A DNA stretch of 62,450 nt, filler included, from 5 parts of 5 records of this genome joined end to end with filler, not necessarily neighbours in it, one strand, 5' to 3'; counted from the first letter of the whole stretch, positions 13,263-62,450 are shown. A program made the numbers and translations. Notes: generated by a model from the sequence alone, not told the origin.

Positions 13263-13851
13263 AAAATTAACCAATCCGTTTACCTACATCGCCGGAAGCA
13301 AAGCATTATTATATGGATTACTGGCAATTATAGCCTCATCCCTTATCGGCCATTTCAGCAATACGCATTTTCCTGGAATTTTATCCATAAAAATGAGTCC
13401 AAGTCTGCCTCTAAGTTACTTTATGATGCAGGGTTTTATAAATTGGCTGATATTATCAGGATTGCTATATCTGGCAGCTATCCTTCTATCCAAATCATCA
13501 GTTCGAATTATCGACATATTTGGCACACTTGCACTGGCCAGAGCTCCTTATATACTTGCTGCATTAACCGGTTTCTCTAAATCGATGCAAAAGTTTGGGT
13601 TGTACCTTGTTTGGACATATTTAAAACAAGGCAAACCTGTTGAAATCACTTCGCTTGAAAAAGGGATTGCTATTTTTTGGCTTGTTTTTAATTTGCTTAT
13701 GACCATATGGTATGTTGCCCTGATTTTTAATGCCTATAAAGTATCAACCAACTTAAAAGATGCAAAGCTTATCCTTTCTTTTATTGTGATTTTGATACTT
13801 ACCATGATAATCACCAATTGGTTAACCTCTTTGTACATCACTAAATTTTAA
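13255..13851 (+). CDS. Yip1-like membrane protein
   Basis: About 5 TM helices; overlaps the DUF2089 gene. Confidence 0.6.
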   Translation: MLKKLTNPFTYIAGSKALLYGLLAIIASSLIGHFSNTHFPGILSIKMSPSLPLSYFMMQGFINWLILSGLLYLAAILLSKSSVRIIDIFGTLALARAPYILAALTGFSKSMQKFGLYLVWTYLKQGKPVEITSLEKGIAIFWLVFNLLMTIWYVALIFNAYKVSTNLKDAKLILSFIVILILTMIITNWLTSLYITKF

Positions 13852-13855
13852 AGTC

Positions 13856-14788
13856 ATGTTTAAAATACTAAGTTTATTATTCTGTTTAAACGCAGCTATT
13901 CTTCAGGCACAAAAAACAGATACTTTATTTATTTCTGTAAAGGATGTAAAACTACATACCGTAATTACTCAAGCAGAAAACACTCAACAGCAGCCGCCAT
14001 TGGTAATATTTATTGGCGGTTCTGGCCCAACCGATTTAAACGGTAACCAACCCGTTATGCAAAACAACAGCCTTATGTACTTATCAAATGCGCTAGCAGC
14101 TAAAAACATTTCTACTCTTCGTTACGATAAGCGTGGTGTTGGTAAAAGCGTCTATGCGAACTTTTACGAAGTTGATTTGCGAATAGATACTTACGCCGAT
14201 GATTTGTCGGAGATTGTTAAAGCTGCCCGTACAAAGGGATTTGCAAAGATTTTTTTGGCTGGTCATAGTGAAGGATCATTAATTGGCTTAATTGTGGCTC
14301 AACAAACCCCTGTTGATGGATTTATTTCGTTATGCGGAGCAGGAAATTCGGCCGATTCTCTGCTAAAGAAACAATTGCATCCTAAGTTGCCAGTCACTAT
14401 GTATCAGGAAACCACTTCCGTTCTTGACTCTTTAAAAGCAGGAAAAACAGTTCAAAATTATCCTCCTCAATTATTTTCACTATTCCGACCTTCGGTACAG
14501 CCTTATTTAATTTCGTGGTTTAAGTACGATCCAGCTAGTTTGATAAATATGCTTACTTGTCCTGTGTTGGTAATTCAGGGAGATAAAGACTTACAAGTCG
14601 ATTTGGAAGAAGCACATGCTTTAAGCAAAAATCTTTCAAAAGAAAACTTGGTGATTATTCCGGGTATGAACCACATTTTTAAACATATTGAAGGGGGCAT
14701 TCAGGAAAACATGGCATCTTACGGTAATCCTTTGTTGCCTGTGCACGAAGAGTTAATTACCAAATTGGTTGAGTTTATACAACCTTAA
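13856..14788 (+). CDS. Secreted alpha/beta hydrolase
   Basis: GSGPTDLNGN, RYDKRGVG, GHSEG nucleophile elbow, GMNH. Confidence 0.9.
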   Translation: MFKILSLLFCLNAAILQAQKTDTLFISVKDVKLHTVITQAENTQQQPPLVIFIGGSGPTDLNGNQPVMQNNSLMYLSNALAAKNISTLRYDKRGVGKSVYANFYEVDLRIDTYADDLSEIVKAARTKGFAKIFLAGHSEGSLIGLIVAQQTPVDGFISLCGAGNSADSLLKKQLHPKLPVTMYQETTSVLDSLKAGKTVQNYPPQLFSLFRPSVQPYLISWFKYDPASLINMLTCPVLVIQGDKDLQVDLEEAHALSKNLSKENLVIIPGMNHIFKHIEGGIQENMASYGNPLLPVHEELITKLVEFIQP

Positions 14789-14827
14789 AAAGCACACATT
14801 CGTTCTATTTTTGATTTGAGCTAATAA

Positions 14828-14860
14828 CAAAAAAAGAGGTCACTTAAAAAAGTGACCTCT
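14828..14860 (-). terminator. Intrinsic terminator between convergent genes
   Basis: AGAGGTCACTT/AAGTGACCTCT 11-bp stem with flanking A-run. Confidence 0.8.
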
Positions 14861-14884
14861 CATTATTGGTTTATATTTTAACAA

Positions 14885-17800
14885 CTACTTTATCACAAAG
14901 ATATCCTTGTAAATTGCATTTTCAGTAGTAATACTGTACACATAAACTCCAGAAGCAAGTTCTGAAATATTAACGTTATTTACTCCAGCCTCCATACTTT
15001 GTTGAAGAACAACAGCACCTTTCATATTAGTAACAACAAGACTACCTGTTGATTTCAATTCAAAATTGATATAATCAACAGCAGGAACAGGATAAACTTT
15101 CACATTTTCACTTCCTTCTATTTCACCAACAGCATTAGAAATATCTTTTCTAACTATTCTGTCTTCGCCATCTTCAGGATATGCAACAGCTGTAATAGCA
15201 CCACTAACACCTTCAACTAAATAGTTATAAAGCGCTTGCTGATAAGTTACTCCCAAAGTAGTAAACGACTTATCTGTACCAAAGTTAAATTGATCTCCTC
15301 CTCTGGCAGTAAAATCAGGTAAAGCAATATTAACGTTTGGAGCAGTAGCTGAAACCACACCGTCAACTACAATTGGTGTTCCGTCAGCTAAAGTTGCTGT
15401 CCAGATTCTTTCTCCAGCATTACCATTTATAACGTTTCCATCACCATCATACTCAATAGAAGTAGCTTCTGTATCCCAAACAATATCAATACCAGCCACT
15501 TGTAAGAAACGACCTGATCCGGAATTTAATCCACCTTCCATAGCAGAAACACTGTTCTCTAACACTTCTTTTAAATCAGCCGGTGTTACATCTTCAACAA
15601 CAGCAACAAAGTTAGAGAATGGTAGAATTTCGAAAGTATTCAGCTCGCTGATAGGACCTGCTGGTATAACGGTATTGTTACGAATACCACCGCCACCTAC
15701 AAGACCTATATCTGCAGCATCTACACCAAAATCAGTATGTAATTGGTTCGCTTGCCACAACATTGCATCTGCTACCAGATTACCCAGGTTAGTTTCGATA
15801 GCACGAATGCTGGTACGTGTTCCATCTAATGCTACTTCACTGTTAGCCACGACATTGCTGGCCATTTCATCCAATGCATCTTGAACAGGCTCTTCGGCAT
15901 TTACTCTTAATGAAGCATTGAAACCATCATTTTCAGGTTTTACCACATATAAACCACTTTCGTCGCTAATGGCAGTTACCACACCATTCTCATCAAAATC
16001 TAAATCCAATTTACCTACGTACTTATACTCTCCCGGAGTGGTAACTACATATACATTGTTACCTTCGCTATCCTGAACAGTGATAGGATATACATCATAG
16101 AAATCTCCATCACCAGGGAATGTTTCTACGCCTTCTTCCCCTAATAATTCGTCACCTCCACCTGCAATTACTACATCTACATTAGTTAATGAAGCAACCA
16201 AAGCTTTTTCTTCTTCAATATCCTGTAAGTGACTAATGACAACAATCTTGTTAATACCCTCAGCGGTTAACGCATTAACAGATGCTTGAATAGTAGCAGC
16301 TACATCATCATTAATTATAGTATTACGCGGTGAAGAAATATAATCTAACGAAGGTGTTGTGGCACCTACAACTCCAACTTGAACACCACCTTTTTCTATG
16401 ATGGTATAAGGAGCAATTCGACCTTCATCGGCCAAAGCTTGTAAGTTAGCTTCGTTTGTAAAATCAAGGTTAGAGCTTAAGAATGGCGTTTCTTCGGAGA
16501 AATCACTAATAAACTGAGCCAACACATCCGGTCCAAAATCAAAATCGTGGTTACCTAAACAAATAGCATCATATCCAATTTGTGACATTGCTAATGCATC
16601 GTAAATTCCATCCTCATTTTCTAAACCTACTGCAAACTGAGGTCCTGCAAGGAAGTTATCTCCTGAAGACAATGTCACTGACTCATTTTCTAATTCAGAT
16701 TTTAAAGCATCCAGCTTTGCTTTAAATGCCGCCACAGTACCAAATAATCCTTCTGTTTCGTCCTCTACTCCTAACAGTTTAGACTCTCCATCGTTATTAT
16801 GAAAAATAGTTAAGTCCCAGGCTTTGTTATATTGCTCGTTGAAGTCGATGGTAGTATACCAGTCGTTAGCTGCTAAATCAGTCCACATGCTTTGCATTAC
16901 AGCAGCTAACTGTATTGCTCCCATATCACCTGATGCATACATTGCTTCAATCATATCCTGATCATCAGAAGGAATAAACTGCTCATCACCTCCATAATGG
17001 GCAACATAGGCTCTGGTAAACGGCATCTTTAATGTTTCAGCTACTTCTTCAGATATATACAAAGGAGCACCCATCAACATATATTTTACTAAGTCAGGGA
17101 ACCCCTTATTTAAATAAGTTAAAGCATAGTTTTGGAAATCATCACTTACACCTTCAACTTCTTCTAATTTACCACCTTCAATTATTAATGATCCGTTATC
17201 GCAGATTTCAACCACTCTATATGGAGAAGGATAAGTAACTAACGAACCTGTTTGAACATCGGTAATTACATTTCCGTTTTTAGTCACTTTTTTAGTAATA
17301 TCCTGTGCATGGCTATGGCCGGTAAATACCACTTTAAGTCCGGCATCAGCCAACTGCTCAGAAACATTTTCCCAATCTTCAACCATATAATCAGCAAAGA
17401 AATCACCATGATAATTATAGTGCTCCAAGATACCGTGGTGCATAATAGCAATCACTTCTTTTCCGGCTGTTTCTGCATCCGCTAACACAGATTCAATCCA
17501 TGTTAAAGTAGCTGCTTTAATAGAACCAGCTGTTTCAGGGTAATCATCTGCAATATTATTGTCGTAGTGACAAGCATCAATTGAAAGAATCCAGTAATCT
17601 GTAGCACCGTCAAATTTCTCTACGAATGAAAGAGAGTTGGCATCGCTTTCATCCGCATCGGCATATCCATAATTGGCATATAGCGTTGTAAATTCTGATG
17701 GTGAGGTATAAGCAACTGCATTTGTGGTAGCTCCATCAAACTCAACTGCATGAGGGTTGTTAATATCATGATTACCCGGAGTTACAAAAACCTCGATACC

Positions 17801-57306: not shown

Positions 57307-57406
57307 NNNNNNNNNNNNNNNNNNNNNNNNNNNNNNNNNNNNNNNNNNNNTTAATTAATTAANNNNNNNNNNNNNNNNNNNNNNNNNNNNNNNNNNNNNN
57401 NNNNNN
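57307..57406. other. Artificial contig linker
   Basis: N44-TTAATTAATTAA-N44. Confidence 0.99.
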
Positions 57407-57587
57407 CAATATCAAAAGCGTCAATGAGTTCCGAAGTACCCTGCCCCACATCAGGGCCGGTTTGTCCGGCCTGGGACGTAGTGAAAAAAACCGGCGTAAA
57501 TTTTTGAAAATCCTTCTGTGCAGACATTCTTTCCATGAGCACGGAACCCACCATGCCCCGCCAGCCAACTATTCCGACTTTTTTCAT
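57407..57587 (-). CDS. asd: Aspartate-semialdehyde dehydrogenase, N-terminal fragment
   Basis: MKKVGIVGWRGMVGSVLMERM...FFTTSQAG. Confidence 0.95.
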
Positions 57588-57851
57588 ATCCTTTATCCTT
57601 TCAGCTACAAGTATGTAATTTAAAATTTAAGTCTTATTGCATAGCTGCTTTTTTAAAAAAAAGCCAGGGTCAGATATAAAAAACAGCAACTCTAAATATG
57701 AAGCGTTTCAGTTGAAAAAACTAGCACAGAGACACTAAGACACAAAAATTTTATTTGATTTTATGTGCCTTTAGGGCTTTGCGCGAGAATAAATTTAGAA
57801 TTGCTGTATAAAGAATCTGTGCAACCACCATGGGCCATACCTGCAATCTAA

Positions 57852-57881
57852 TGCCAATCTCAAAATTGCCAATCTCAAAAT
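57852..57881. repeat. Perfect 15-bp tandem duplication
   Basis: TGCCAATCTCAAAAT twice. Confidence 0.85.
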
Positions 57882-57959
57882 GATTTTCAACATATTTGTA
57901 AGCATGCAGACATAACATCTCTATTATGGAACACACTCCAACACGACACCACAGCAAAA

Positions 57960-57987
57960 GTACTACGAAATTGAAAATAGTTATTAC
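57960..57987. promoter_or_regulatory. Candidate NikR-type operator GTACTA-N16-TATTAC
   Basis: 6-16-6 geometry as in E. coli NikR sites (GTATGA-N16-TCATAC). Confidence 0.55.
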
Positions 57988-58154
57988 AAATATGTCTATG
58001 CATTAATTTCAAAATTGAAGTTTTGGCTCGAGTGCGCGCAAGGTCAAACCAAGGGTTCAATTTCTCACTACAAATTCATATTTACGTTATTTCAAATATT
58101 TATAAATGAATTTTTCTAAATAACTTCCTTTCCCAACGCCTTTATTGCTTGTTT

Positions 58155-58170
58155 CGGCCCGGCCTTTGCA
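58155..58170 (+). promoter_or_regulatory. Sigma54 -24/-12 promoter
   Basis: CGGCCCGGCCTTTGCA, exact GG-N10-GC with TTGCA, 60 nt before the ATG. Confidence 0.65.
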
Positions 58171-58188
58171 TACCCCTCTTGCAACCGA

Positions 58189-58216
58189 GTAATACTTTTT
58201 TATTAAAACGTAATAA
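58189..58216. promoter_or_regulatory. Candidate NikR-type operator GTAATA-N16-TAATAA
   Basis: Lies between the sigma54 promoter and the AGGAG RBS. Confidence 0.5.
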
Positions 58217-58230
58217 TCATAGGAGTAACC

Positions 58231-59208
58231 ATGAAATTTAAATCCAGAGTGCTTATTATCCTAATTTGTTTATTTGTTGTCCTTAGCAGCGCCCAGGCTG
58301 AACCCTTGAAAATTGCTTACAGTGACTGGCCCGGCTGGATTGCCTGGGATATTGGTGTCAGAAAAGGTTTTTTTGAAAAGCATGGGGTTGATGTTGAACT
58401 CAAATGGTTTGAATATATGGCGTCAATGGATGCATTCGCAGCCGGCAAAGTGGATGCAGTATGCGTGACAAACGGCGACGCCCTGATCCTGAACGCCACG
58501 GGTACCCGCAACATTATGATTCTGATCAATGATATCAGTAATGGGAATGATAAAATTGTTGCAGCCCCGGGCATTGAATCCGTCAAGGCGCTGAAAGGTC
58601 ACAAAATAGGGGTGGAGATCGGTTGTGTCAGCCATCTTCTGCTGATAAATGCCCTTAAAGACAACGGCATGACTGAAAAAGATGTCACCCTGGTGAATGT
58701 TCCCACCCACCAGACTGCCCAAGTTCTGGCATCCGGCGATGTTGATGCCATTGTTGCATGGCAGCCCAATTCAGGGCAGGCCCTTAAATCCGTACATGGA
58801 TCTTCACAGGTCTACACCAGTGCCAATGCCCCTGGCCTGATTTATGATACCCTGGCCGTATCGCTTAACTCCGTTTTGGAACGACGCGCAGACTGGCAGA
58901 AAGTTGTGGCGGCCTGGTATGACATTATCGCTTACATGAAAAACCCGGCCAACAAAACGCAAATGCTTGAAATTCTTTCCTCCCGTGTTGCTTTGACCCC
59001 TGCAGAGTATGAACCCTTTCTCAAAGGGACCAAAATTTTCACCCTGGCAGAGGCGGCAGGCGCCTTAAAACCCGGCGATGGTTTTTCAAGCCTCTACGGC
59101 TCCAGCGATATTTCAGACAAATTCATGATTGACAATAAAGTGTACGACAAGCCTGTTAACACCAAAAAGGTCATTGACCCCTCATTCACCAAAGCGTTGT
59201 TGAAATAA
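58231..59208 (+). CDS. ABC substrate-binding protein (SsuA/NMT1-like, urea carboxylase-associated type)
   Basis: Signal peptide; AYSDWPGW, SNGND, WQP. Confidence 0.88.
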   Translation: MKFKSRVLIILICLFVVLSSAQAEPLKIAYSDWPGWIAWDIGVRKGFFEKHGVDVELKWFEYMASMDAFAAGKVDAVCVTNGDALILNATGTRNIMILINDISNGNDKIVAAPGIESVKALKGHKIGVEIGCVSHLLLINALKDNGMTEKDVTLVNVPTHQTAQVLASGDVDAIVAWQPNSGQALKSVHGSSQVYTSANAPGLIYDTLAVSLNSVLERRADWQKVVAAWYDIIAYMKNPANKTQMLEILSSRVALTPAEYEPFLKGTKIFTLAEAAGALKPGDGFSSLYGSSDISDKFMIDNKVYDKPVNTKKVIDPSFTKALLK

Positions 59209-59221
59209 GGAAACAAAATCC

Positions 59222-60283
59222 ATGACCTGGCTTTCAATTCAAAAACCACTTGCGCCAAAGAAAAAAGCAGTGTTGATCTTGCTTTCCTTTGTCCTCCCCC
59301 TGCTGTTATGGTCGGCGGTCAGCTATCTGTCCTTTGTATGGCACCCCATGATGGAGATCCAGTCCGCCGGAGACAGTCTTTATTTTGAAGAAGGCCAGCG
59401 GGTCCGGCGCACGCTCTTTGCGGCAGAAAACACACGGATCAGCGAAAGTGGTGGGCAGAAAGCAACGGGAAGGCGTGTTAATCCGGTGTACCTTCCGCCG
59501 CCGCACAAGGTATTAACAGCTGTCTATACCTCCTTTAAAGCCAAACCCCGCAGACCGGGAGACCCTTGGCTCCATGAAAGTCTTGCCCATAGCATCCGTG
59601 TGGTGTTTTACGGATTCTTGCTCTCTTCCATCATCGGTGTGCCCTTAGGAATCATATGCGGCGTATTTGATTTTTTCTCAAAGCTGACAGAGCCGTTTAT
59701 GGAATTTTTCAGATATATGCCGGCACCGGTGTTTGGGGCCCTGGCAGTGGCGATTTTAGGCATTAACGATGCCCCCAAAATTGCCATTATTTTTATCGGC
59801 ACTTTTTTCCAACAGGTCCTGGTGATTGCCAACACCACGCGTCTGCTGCCGCCATCCTTGCTGGAAGCGGCACAGACACTAGGGGCCCGTGGCGGTACCC
59901 TGTTTAAAAAAGTGGTGCTTCCGGCTATCGCACCCCATGTGTTCCTGGATATGCGAATTCTTCTGGGCTGGGCATGGACCTACCTCATTGTCGCAGAAGT
60001 GGTCGGCACCAGTACCGGCATCACCTGGTTCATCAACCAGCAGGCCAAGTACCGTATTTATGAAAATGTGTATGCCGCAATCCTTCTCATCGGATTTATC
60101 GGGCTGTCCACCGATATGCTGCTGGCCTGGATCGGACGAAATGTATTTATCTGGAATGGCGGGCGACGCAACACGTTTTTTCAAATTCTCGTTGAGACCT
60201 TTACCGGCCCCAGGGACACCACATTTACTTTTCTAAACAAAAGAGACACAAGATATGAACGCGCTGACACTGCCCAGCTATAA
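59222..60283 (+). CDS. ABC permease (SsuC/TauC type)
   Basis: [34 protein letters not shown]. Confidence 0.92.
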
Positions 60284-61142
60284 GGACCAGAGCCCAAAGG
60301 TTGCAGACCGGTTTAAACGGTTAAAAAAACGGGATGTCATTCTTGAAGCTGAAAATATTACCAAAGTATTCAATTCGGAAATCGGGGACATCACCGCCCT
60401 TAAATCCTTATCCTTCAAGGCATACCGGCGGGAATTTCTCTCGGTGATCGGCGCCTCCGGATGCGGAAAATCCACGTTGATCCGTATTTTATCCGGTCTT
60501 GAGACAGTCACATCCGGGCAAGTGCTGCTGGACGGCAAAAAAGTGGAAAAACCCGGGCCGGAAAGGGGTATGGTTTTCCAGGGTTACACATTGTTTCCCT
60601 GGCTGACGGTCAAAAAGAATGTGATGTTCGGCTTGGAGGTTGCCGGAAAAAGTCAGGCAGAATCGGAAGCCATGCAGTGGATAGACATGGTGGGACTTGA
60701 TCGGTTTGCAGATCACTACCCCCGTCAGCTGTCCGGCGGCATGCAGCAGCGGGTAGCCATTGCCCGGGCCCTGGCCAACCAGCCCAGGGTGTTGTTGATG
60801 GATGAACCCTTTGGTGCCCTGGATGCCCAGACAAGGGCAAAAATGCAGTCCTATCTGCTTCAGATCTGGCAGAATGTGGATATCACCATCATTTTCATCA
60901 CCCATGACTTGGATGAAGCGGTCTACCTGTCGGACAGGATTCTGGTGCTGGACAACCATCCAGGGCGCGTCAAGGAGATGATTGAAGTGCCGGTGGAACA
61001 GCCGCGCTCGGTCAAACAGCACCTGAACCCAGAATTTCTGGCCACCAAGGCACATATTGAAAACCTGATTCATCCACACAGAGATGAAGAGGACCGGCTT
61101 CCCATCATCCGCCTGACCCAGGTCAATGATGATATTTTGTAG
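60255..61142 (+). CDS. ABC ATP-binding protein
   Basis: [27 protein letters not shown]. Confidence 0.95.
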
Positions 61143-61170
61143 TCGGTATTCAAAAAAGGAAAAAGATACC

Positions 61171-61632
61171 ATGAGCAGCCCAACCAACGATAAAACCCAG
61201 AGAATCAGTGTTTCACTGCCGGTTCAGCTGACAGCGGAACTGGACAGGATGGTTGTGAACGGTGGATACCGGAACCGCAGCCAGGCCATGGCACAGATGA
61301 TCCGCAATACCCTTCTGGATCATTACGAACAAAGCGGCAGCCGTATCATGGCCGGAACAATTACCCTGATCTATAACGAGGCACAGGCGGGGCTGAAAAC
61401 CCGTTTAACCCGTATTCAGCGGCATCATATTGATTCGGTGATTTCCTGCCTCAATGTTTTGCTTGAAAAGGATTATTCCCTTGAAGTGCTTCTGGTGCAG
61501 GGTCCGGTGGACACCCTGAACAAAATCGTCAAAGAGATACGGGCCTGCAAAGGCGTTGAAAACTGTAAACTGGTACTCTCATCTGCACTGATGCCGCCAA
61601 TTCATGAAAAAACAGGAGCAAATAATGAATAA
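61171..61632 (+). CDS. NikR-fold (RHH + ACT-like) regulator lacking nickel ligands
   Basis: RISVSLP...GYRNRSQA; GTITLIY; QRHH...LNVL...YSLEV in place of QHHH...LHVH...DCLEI. Confidence 0.85.
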   Translation: MSSPTNDKTQRISVSLPVQLTAELDRMVVNGGYRNRSQAMAQMIRNTLLDHYEQSGSRIMAGTITLIYNEAQAGLKTRLTRIQRHHIDSVISCLNVLLEKDYSLEVLLVQGPVDTLNKIVKEIRACKGVENCKLVLSSALMPPIHEKTGANNE

Positions 61633-62368
61633 CCAACAATCCCAGAACAATGAAACGGTCGGAAAACTGCGCTTTGAAACCATCGTTCCAGGCGGGTGGA
61701 ACTGGTCCCATATTATTAAAAAAGGCTCATCCGTTCAGCTCACCGATCTGGAAGGCGGTGCCAATGCATCAGCACTTTTCTATAATGCCGCCAACCCGAA
61801 TGAGCGCTACAATATGGGAGATACACTTAAAATTCAGCACATTTCATATATTACCCGTGGGCACTGCATCTATTCGGACATGGGCCGGATTCTCATGTCG
61901 GTCATTGAGGATACCTGCGGATGGAACGATGTGATCTGCGGGGTGTCCGATGCCGCCATGATCAAGGCCCGCTTCGGCACAAAGGTATACCAGGACCATC
62001 ACAACGACTTTTACCGCAACGGTTACGATTCTTTAATGGTGGAACTTGCAAAGTACGCCCTTGGTCCCAGGGATTTTACCGAGACAATCAATTTTTTCAC
62101 AAAAGTCGGGGTGTCTGATAATGGGGATCTTTTTTTTGTTGAAGACTTTTCAACGCCCGGCAGCAGCGTCACGCTCAGGGCTGAAATGGACACCCTTATG
62201 GTGCTGGACACCGGAATACACCCCCTTAATCCCACAGCCGACTATGTCAGAAAACCCGTAAAAATAGCCGTCATGGATTGCCCCCCTGCGGGGATGGATG
62301 ATCCCTGCCGCACATTCTGCCCCGAAAATGAGAGGGGGTTTATCAATACAGAGCAGTACCATTTCTAA
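61625..62368 (+). CDS. DUF1989 urea carboxylase-associated protein (carboxyguanidine deiminase A-like)
   Basis: LTDLEGGAN, ERYNMGDTLK, YSDMGR, DTCGWND, INFF, HPL, CPENERG. Confidence 0.88.
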   Translation: MNNQQSQNNETVGKLRFETIVPGGWNWSHIIKKGSSVQLTDLEGGANASALFYNAANPNERYNMGDTLKIQHISYITRGHCIYSDMGRILMSVIEDTCGWNDVICGVSDAAMIKARFGTKVYQDHHNDFYRNGYDSLMVELAKYALGPRDFTETINFFTKVGVSDNGDLFFVEDFSTPGSSVTLRAEMDTLMVLDTGIHPLNPTADYVRKPVKIAVMDCPPAGMDDPCRTFCPENERGFINTEQYHF

Positions 62369-62450
62369 AACTTGATTCGTTTTTATATGAAACTCGATAA
62401 TCCGGTTTTTAGGGAATTTTTTCAAATTCAAGGCGGAAACAATTTTTAAC

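Follow-up and report, generated by a model that had tools for sequence, protein, structure and literature searches.

A NikR-family protein without a nickel site as candidate repressor of a guanidine-carboxylase operon in the position of the guanidine-I riboswitch

The guanidine-I (ykkC) riboswitch, a cis-acting RNA, stands at the head of operons that encode an importer, the UAAP1/UAAP2 protein pair, a carboxylase with an Asp/Asp signature and allophanate hydrolase, and it can be combined with an internal guanidine-II (mini-ykkC) riboswitch. Its binding of guanidine is established (PMC12186494 and PMC11410670). A 2025 review describes riboswitches as the sole guanidine receptors known so far and raises the question of regulatory proteins that bind guanidine (PMC12186494). 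NikR is treated as purely a nickel sensor in a 2026 survey (10.64898/2026.05.01.721428). Here we describe an operon, at positions 57960..62368 on the + strand of a 62,450-nucleotide (nt) window made of 5 record parts joined with filler, that has the content of the guanidine-I operons together with a gene for a NikR-like regulator and, in the same slot at the operon head, candidate operators for it. Unlike the riboswitch, this regulator would be a protein acting on DNA, and its ligand is a candidate only. We read it, with a probability of about 0.5, as a nickel-independent NikR-family repressor dedicated to the guanidine-carboxylase operon, which would be released by guanidine or a related pathway compound and would fill the guanidine-I slot.

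The first-pass annotation had held that the operon encodes a NikR-fold protein and had matched, by eye, the four nickel ligands of E. coli NikR to R/N/L/S; profile searches and alignments bear out both points. The regulator matched Pfam NikR_C (PF08753) with 77.3 bits (E 1e-21) and RHH_1 with an E value of 6.7e-5 at residues 26-61 of the 168-amino acid open reading frame, a segment that aligned with the ribbon-helix-helix domains of 2bj1 and H. pylori NikR. Its best solved relative was P. horikoshii NikR (PDB 2bj1, E 1.3e-21). The gene start was taken as M16 of the 168-codon frame (position 61171), because homologs are mostly 146-157 amino acids long and align from codon 16. With E. coli H76', H87, H89 and C95 as the numbering reference, R84, N95, L97 and S103 of the regulator stood opposite the ligands H, H, H and C when HMMER aligned it to 2bj1 and to H. 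pylori NikR, and the same columns emerged when it was aligned with five canonical NikR paralogs taken from related genomes. The protein scored under all NCBIfam NikR cut-offs: NF003381 (101.3 against 105), NF002169 (85.1 against 111), NF002815 (74.2 against 83) and TIGR02793 (66.9 against 175.45). It shares with NikR (E. coli 1q5v/2hzv, H. pylori 2ca9, P. horikoshii 2bj1) the two-domain build, and with the canonical paralogs the R-x-S-x-S of the DNA-reading strand. It differs in lacking all four ligands, the Cys being gone family-wide, in having conserved residues of its own and in a C-terminal P-P-I/L-H tail; its putative role is regulation of guanidine catabolism and import rather than nickel uptake, and it coexists with a true NikR. 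By its sequence, the regulator belongs to the NikR family but has lost the nickel site.

Two NikR_C genes were present in each of five related genomes (5/5), a canonical copy of about 116 bits with the complete H...HVH...C pattern and the operon copy of about 73 bits. Since a canonical NikR with H/H/H/C is found alongside in all five, the operon copy would be an extra, dedicated paralog and not the cell's nickel sensor. Among the 120 closest database homologs listed, none had the H/H/H/C pattern or the ligand Cys, and R/N/L/S was common to the window and 30 of the 120. Such genes are named 'nickel-responsive regulator' in several sources. Metagenomes held at least 526 relatives; in the best 80 loci, which were examined (42-51% identity, one 88%), the ligand Cys was retained in 0/80. 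A metal could still be sensed via other residues, or the protein could keep an ancestral nickel-sparing role in which the nickel-free guanidine/urea route is turned on when nickel is scarce for urease or guanidinase. The carboxylase route is indeed an alternative to guanidinase and urease that, unlike these two nickel enzymes, does without nickel (PMC11410670), and three of the four ligands occur in 10/80 family loci (HHHT, HHHS, HHHY), but the Cys is missing from all the metagenome members and listed homologs, the window protein has none of the four ligands, and a canonical NikR is at hand. Likewise, C126, C132 and H145 are conserved in the window's clade, whereas 80% of the family have Gly in place of C132. 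Together these observations make a metal sensor very improbable.

The genomic company of the regulator was consistent. In species genomes the R/N/L/S clade comprised nine Desulfobulbaceae-type loci at 61-67% identity, and in 9/9 of them the regulator was followed by two DUF1989 genes. Three importer genes preceded it in 8/9, the contig of the ninth beginning within the ATPase gene, and UAAP2, which is beyond the window, followed in 9/9 (318.8 bits in locus L004, from Desulfogranum japonicum). Downstream in L004 lay a 1197-amino acid carboxylase (TIGR02712, 1865.7 bits) and then allophanate hydrolase; carboxylase and allophanate hydrolase were identified in both loci scanned, L004 and L002, the allophanate hydrolase scoring over the TIGR02713 cut-off in each. 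The window ends at 62450, 82 nt past the UAAP1 gene, with the urea/guanidine carboxylase gene outside it. Operon content past this point was taken from the relatives, and the carboxylase gene was present further along in all syntenic relatives with DNA available. Of the operon first proposed, with an ATP-binding cassette (ABC) importer, DUF1989 proteins and urea carboxylase, the importer and a DUF1989 gene are in the window itself, and the carboxylase is seen in relatives.

The pathway was assigned from the carboxylase. A guanidine carboxylase is marked by Asp at TIGR02712 positions 701 and 956 (PMC11410670), and the L004 enzyme had D697 and D948 at these positions (two 61-residue fragments, gapless model matches). 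Asp/Asp was found in 8/8 Desulfobulbaceae loci holding the carboxylase gene and in 45/47 locus records holding these parts, the other 2 being truncated where their contigs stop. Six riboswitch-controlled positive controls are among the 45, and some records duplicate DNA (L011/L004, L012/L007). In a 151-genome order-level sample only 2 full-length carboxylases were present, both in operons with the regulator. The importer type of the window recurs in Burkholderia stagnalis (L124) downstream of a guanidine-I riboswitch, at 50%, 56% and 68% identity for the three subunits (binding protein 50%). Several family loci also have guanidine-II elements ahead of the carboxylase gene. These results support a guanidine pathway, which appears to bear the published carboxylase signature as read in the relatives. 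The DUF1989 pair also occurs in another setting: on a plasmid of Paraburkholderia sp. FT54 (L128, 7839-10811) a UAAP1/UAAP2 pair lies with an amino-acid-type ABC importer and an amidase, with a LysR gene upstream; carboxylase, riboswitch and NikR-like gene were all absent on inspection of this locus, which is a different use of the pair.

In the wider family, 77/80 of the best metagenome loci had pathway genes, importer genes, or creatininase-family plus type III glutamine-synthetase-like genes. UAAP1 lay directly 3' of the regulator in 54/69 loci with at least 400 nt of room (49 by script and 5 overlapping starts read off); in the remaining arrangements the regulator was divergent from the importer operon or was the last gene, after the glutamine-synthetase-like gene. 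Pathway genes were unseen in 3/80 loci: a contig of only 1 kb, and two loci whose regulator gene lies at the edge of its contig. In the latter two (L085, L092) the regulator is followed by unrelated genes (a major facilitator superfamily transporter, a flavin adenine dinucleotide oxidoreductase, or no family), and with their upstream side missing they neither support nor contradict the pathway link. Named examples borne on plasmids came from Asticcacaulis excentricus CB 48, whose regulator is annotated as WP_013481082.1, eight Novosphingobium records and Acinetobacter sp. NCu2D-2 (L122), the last being the single Acinetobacter record with its neighbourhood examined. The creatininase-family hydrolase and type III glutamine-synthetase-like ligase accompany the importer and regulator in L001, L002 and 36/80 metagenome loci (for example L061, 5773-7951), and in L001 and L002 the pair separates the two DUF1989 genes. 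On a Hydrogenedentota contig (L010, 1738-2100) a NikR-like gene of lower similarity (36% identity) precedes an ABC ATPase gene; pathway genes were not detected at that locus and the matrix scan described below found no operator of at least 8 bits.

The two 6-16-6 boxes pointed out by the first-pass annotation are real by the following analysis. The 80 metagenome loci yielded a family palindrome, GTATTA-N16-TAATAC. In their 629,606 nt there were 22 perfect sites, 17 at 11/12 and 28 at 10/12, compared with 0.04, 0.38 and 9.0 in block shuffles, and 38/39 of the best sites lay 21-119 nt upstream of gene starts (regulator 23, binding protein 14, creatininase-family 1). A matrix was built from 35 distinct metagenome sites, with the window kept out of training. 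Over the 62,450 nt of the window it ranked the proximal operator O2 first (22.1 bits) and the distal operator O1, 229 bp upstream of O2, second (16.9 bits), with the next site at 9.7 bits. None of 500 block shuffles of the window reached 22.1 bits, 16 reached 16.9 and none held two sites of at least 16.9; for the 643-nt intergenic region 1/5000 shuffles reached 16.9. A bipartite box stood right before the ribosome-binding site in the leaders of the window and of seven relatives, and the proximal site scored 28.2 bits in L002, 27.8 in L004, 22.2 in L008, 22.1 in L003, 15.9 in L007, 8.7 in L009 and less than 8 in L005. No counterpart of O1 of at least 8 bits was found in the seven related Desulfobulbaceae leaders. 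The distal box had on that ground been taken for a non-operator, a view that was dropped after the matrix scan, with its 16.9 bits, and the shuffles.

Sites were also found in the named loci that carry the regulator: 27.9 bits in Asticcacaulis, 21.2, 21.0 and 18.9 bits in Acinetobacter, and 30.2 and 15.1 bits in Novosphingobium. Among seven loci without the regulator there was no site above 12 bits in 6/7, and the seventh had one weak 14.1-bit match at the UAAP1/UAAP2 junction. The link between regulator, operator and operon is strong and extends over several phyla. The 6-16-6 geometry is common to NikR operators, and the family box is one base per half off the E. coli NikR box, GTATGA-N16-TCATAC. 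It is hardly credible that the boxes are instead parts of an unrecognised leader RNA element. O2 does lie within the predicted 5' untranslated region and the palindrome could fold as a hairpin, but its arms pair at only 5/6 positions in the window, while the sequence itself is conserved across phyla. Between divergent genes the sites are found in either orientation, and they stand before different first genes; they are confined to loci with the regulator gene bar the weak 14.1-bit match, their layout equals that of the NikR box, and Rfam finds nothing in the leader.

The promoter was addressed by comparison of leaders. A GG-N10-GC expression matched at −69 to −76 in 7/8 leaders, with only one other match in 8 × 250 nt, and the eighth leader has a similar sigma54-type element by eye. 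The rpoN gene was present in 5/5 related genomes. A sigma54 consensus with 3 mismatches gave 244 matches in the whole window against 255.6 expected, so that a single match is not above chance, and a sigma70 scan of the leader gave 2 matches against 2.9 expected, none usable. If the sigma54-type promoter is right, O2 would span about +8 to +36, where a repressor would be expected to bind. Of the earlier statement that the boxes flank the promoter with one in a repressor position, what stands is that O2 lies between the −24/−12 element and the ribosome-binding site; the promoter between the boxes is a call from conserved position. By eye, a motif of the form TTACA-(4 A/T)-TGT appears to recur, with one or two copies in each leader 5' of the sigma54-type element. 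It lies at about 57975-57995 in the window (TTACAAATATGTC), where it overlaps the right half of O1, and at about −180 to −260 in L002, L004, L005, L007, L008 and L009; it could be a site for a sigma54 activator.

The claim that the leader has no guanidine riboswitch survived an Rfam scan, which gave no matches at gathering thresholds in the whole window and none to the guanidine families in 57400-58400 even at E<=10. The scan was extended to 47 further, hand-chosen regulator loci (8 + 19 + 10 + 1 + 9), 48 with the window, with 38/80 of the metagenome loci included. No guanidine riboswitch was found in the 8 related loci, and guanidine-I was found in 2/48 regulator loci, L107 and L122. In L107 it belongs to a different unit, 6.5 kb away from the regulator. 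In L122, the Acinetobacter plasmid, it (214-325) heads the UAAP1-UAAP2-carboxylase unit, and the 18.9-bit operator (151-178) is directly upstream, a tandem that would mean dual control of one unit. The L122 cluster also holds genes for a small multidrug resistance transporter, a 2-oxoglutarate-Fe(II) oxygenase and a hypothetical protein (13314-15540), which recall the methylguanidine demethylation genes of PMC12508155. For comparison, seven plasmid loci with UAAP1 and without the regulator were taken from 60 listed rows of 225 records. Guanidine-I stood directly upstream of the first gene in 6/6 carboxylase operons without the regulator, with 68-91 bits, in a set (Azospirillum, Burkholderia, Pantoea, Paenibacillus, Rhizobium and Peteryoungia) hand-picked for taxonomic spread rather than sampled at random; the seventh locus had neither carboxylase nor riboswitch. 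Matches to the regulator included 0/116 Rhizobium and 0/73 Pantoea records with UAAP1, but 8/8 Novosphingobium and 4/4 Acinetobacter. Guanidine-I was found in 0/5 related genomes and in 0/151 sampled genomes of the phylum.

Guanidine-II is distributed differently. It was above threshold between UAAP2 and the carboxylase gene in L061 (9917-9963), L109 (9529-9575) and L101 (11780-11824, − strand), and a regular expression for the double GGGACGRCY hairpin gave nine family loci in all, adding L065, L077, L088, L090, L096 and L104. In 8/9 of these the regulators keep His at both middle ligand columns (YHHM, YHHT, CHHM, HHHT). Guanidine-II was at first taken to hint at some other ligand for the protein, a suggestion weakened by the operons of Pantoea and Rhizobium, which have guanidine-I in the leader and guanidine-II inside. 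Because the two coexist there, two guanidine sensors per operon are normal and offer no argument for a different ligand. The proposal that the NikR homolog replaces the riboswitch is supported as a statement on regulatory position, with the same leader slot, and on near-exclusion (2/48 versus 6/6); it is not absolute, since guanidine-II, and in two loci guanidine-I, coexist with the regulator.

These distributions bear on what the protein may sense. It could be an operon repressor with nitrogen sufficiency or a pathway product (glutamine, ammonium-derived metabolites, 2-oxoglutarate) as co-repressor, substrate specificity then coming from a sigma54 activator or from riboswitches. The ACT-like C-terminal domain has a fold that often binds amino acids, and the known NikRs bind DNA when liganded. 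Combined different signals would also fit the operator/guanidine-I tandem of L122 and the guanidine-II elements in nine family operons. However, the Pantoea and Rhizobium operons show that riboswitch company is no sign of another ligand, and the near-exclusion of guanidine-I is what a functional substitute predicts and an independent signal does not. In the Desulfobulbaceae the sigma54 promoter could already give the nitrogen signal. A nitrogen-responsive co-repressor mechanism is for these reasons unlikely, though not negligible.

Conservation within the regulator points away from the old nickel columns. Across the family, 52% of the sequences have R in column 84, 22% have H and 16% have Y; column 95 is H in 88%, column 97 is H, Q or L, and column 103 is never C. 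Residues that are conserved in the family and differ from canonical NikR are Q110, P112, P142 and L98; Q110 and P112 are invariant in 81/81 sequences, P142 in 80/80 long enough to include it, and 96% retain H145. A four-copy model scored 0.85 against 0.00 for the best control, with at least 93% of contacts shared between runs and partner pLDDT (predicted local distance difference test) of at least 78, a pass that may be memory of solved NikR tetramers; in calibration the mark was reached by 20/30 proteins solved as same-chain pairs and by 1/23 solved as single chains. In this model residues 110-112 and the tail 140-147 touch residues 87-92 of the neighbouring chain, which suggests a lead for a new inter-subunit site, and no more. 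A ligand-free autoregulatory repressor, whose C-terminal domain only holds the tetramer together and which damps an operon induced by other factors, would agree with the free drift of the nickel columns, with the loss of E89 and H95 in the window's clade, and with the position of the gene inside the operon that it would repress, as in simple negative feedback. Against it stands the strong conservation of family-specific residues outside the DNA-binding domain (Q110, P112, P142, H145), which meet the neighbour's 87-92 in the model, suggesting a functional inter-subunit site, and a catabolic operon that has lost its riboswitch needs some inducer logic. We consider a repressor without a ligand improbable.

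In the mechanism that we favour, that of a guanidine-pathway repressor, the protein is expected to form a NikR-like tetramer in which two ribbon-helix-helix dimers would read the halves of the 28-bp palindrome. Bound at O2, just downstream of the sigma54-type promoter, it would block the whole operon including its own gene, so that it would act by repression rather than activation. A small molecule at the C-terminal domain, with guanidine or a close pathway compound as the candidate, would release it, and the protein would then do the job that the guanidine-I riboswitch does elsewhere. The first-pass annotation had likewise proposed guanidine, urea, carboxyguanidine or a related compound as possible ligands. 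A parallel is offered by MetJ and other small-molecule ribbon-helix-helix repressors, in which a metabolite and not a metal sets DNA binding; MetJ differs in lacking the NikR_C/ACT-like tetramerisation domain and in binding tandem 8-bp boxes, and no homology beyond the DNA-binding fold is claimed.

Several observations weigh against this mechanism. In characterised NikRs the ligand promotes DNA binding, and an inducer needs the opposite. An Arg at position 84 is unexpected beside a guanidinium cation. The nickel-site columns vary (RHQR, RHLV, YHHM, HHHT) among members that share operator and operon, with RNLS only in the window's clade, and that clade has also lost two residues near the site that the rest of the family conserves, E89 (conserved in 93%, replaced by S) and H95 (conserved in 88%, replaced by N). 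This variation looks more like decay than like a repurposed pocket; with the old columns unconserved and the window's clade the most stripped, it speaks against simple reuse of the nickel pocket. The L122 tandem would be redundant if both elements sense guanidine, guanidine-II inside nine family operons counts against a clean replacement, and the comparison with riboswitch operons depends on six chosen examples. Finally, the putative sigma54 promoter is called from its conserved position only.

A more specific version of the guanidine-pathway repressor is that the family represents the first protein guanidine receptor. Its ACT-like domain, originally a metal sensor, would have become a receptor for guanidinium or a guanidino compound, with a new binding site between subunits to which the family-specific Q110-G-P112 turn, helix residues 87-92 and the P-P-I/L-H tail at the C terminus would contribute; the ligand would free the tetramer, and the protein would substitute for guanidine-I across several phyla. 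We hold this version tentatively, as a real possibility on which we would not yet rely.

The features of the operon are collected in Table 1. The binding protein scored 155 bits against the 'urea-carboxylase-region' model TIGR03427, under the cut-off of 333.9, and the UAAP1-type product scored 301.9 bits against TIGR03425, over the cut-off of 205.95.

Table 1. Positions of the operon genes and candidate control elements in the 62,450-nt window.
Feature	Position	Strand	Evidence and remarks
Intergenic region		 	643 nt, upstream of the binding-protein gene
Distal operator O1 (candidate), GTACTA-N16-TATTAC	57960-57987	.	10/12 versus family palindrome; 244-271 nt before first ATG
Sigma54-type element (putative), cGGCCCggcctTTGCA	58155-58170	+	GG 58156-58157, GC 58168-58169; predicted start ~58180
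Proximal operator O2 (candidate), GTAATA-N16-TAATAA	58189-58216	.	10/12 versus family palindrome; just before AGGAG ribosome-binding site
Periplasmic binding protein, NMT1/SsuA-type ABC importer	58231-59208	+	Pfam NMT1_2 1.1e-18
ABC importer permease	59222-60283	+	Pfam BPD_transp_1 3.6e-23; syntenic in 8/9 related loci
ABC importer ATPase	60255-61142	+	Pfam ABC_tran 1.4e-34; syntenic in 9/9 related loci
NikR-like regulator, 153 amino acids, ribbon-helix-helix + NikR_C (ACT-like)	61171-61632	+	Pfam, structure-relative alignments
DUF1989 protein, UAAP1 type, one subunit of the carboxyguanidine-deiminase pair	61604-62368	+	Pfam DUF1989 2.7e-60

Upstream of the operon, two N runs around the letters TTAATTAATTAA at 57307-57396 resemble a linker for joining contigs, with stop codons in every frame. 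The operon piece is accordingly 57397-62450, and the DNA to its left is not necessarily adjacent. The cytochrome and dehydrogenase genes left of the linker need not be the operon's neighbours, and the N run cuts an aspartate-semialdehyde-dehydrogenase-like gene on the − strand (57351-57587). At the other end, the final ~60 nt (62388-62450) had a depth of thousands against tens elsewhere in four runs, with many loose ends at 62388-62406. A 7.8-kb RNA-library contig of a close relative diverges from the window at 62371 and continues with an apparent ribosome site and the ATG of the next gene. The window thus ends in a high-copy repeat. Contigs of three marine-sediment RNA libraries (two studies) span 58287-62371 of a close relative, the regulator gene included. 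They are compatible with expression of the operon, but DNA may be present in libraries of this kind and contigs reveal neither transcription starts nor transcript levels. The segment 57900-58203 was not covered by these contigs, which is uninformative on the transcription start since contigs cannot show starts.

A literature search, with most subscription journals outside its reach, found no description of a NikR-like or ribbon-helix-helix regulator of guanidine or urea carboxylase operons. The family described here provides a purifiable candidate guanidine-binding regulator with defined operators, and so a candidate for the first protein switch of this pathway, with culturable hosts in Asticcacaulis excentricus CB 48, Novosphingobium, Desulfogranum japonicum (strain DSM 18378, for one) and Desulfobulbus rhabdoformis. 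A biosensor part could be made of the protein together with its operator. For the NikR family, the findings indicate that it is not purely a nickel sensor and that the name 'nickel-responsive regulator' would corrupt predicted nickel regulons. The use of a protein in some lineages and an RNA in others, in one regulatory slot of orthologous operons, would constitute a natural experiment on how cells choose between them.

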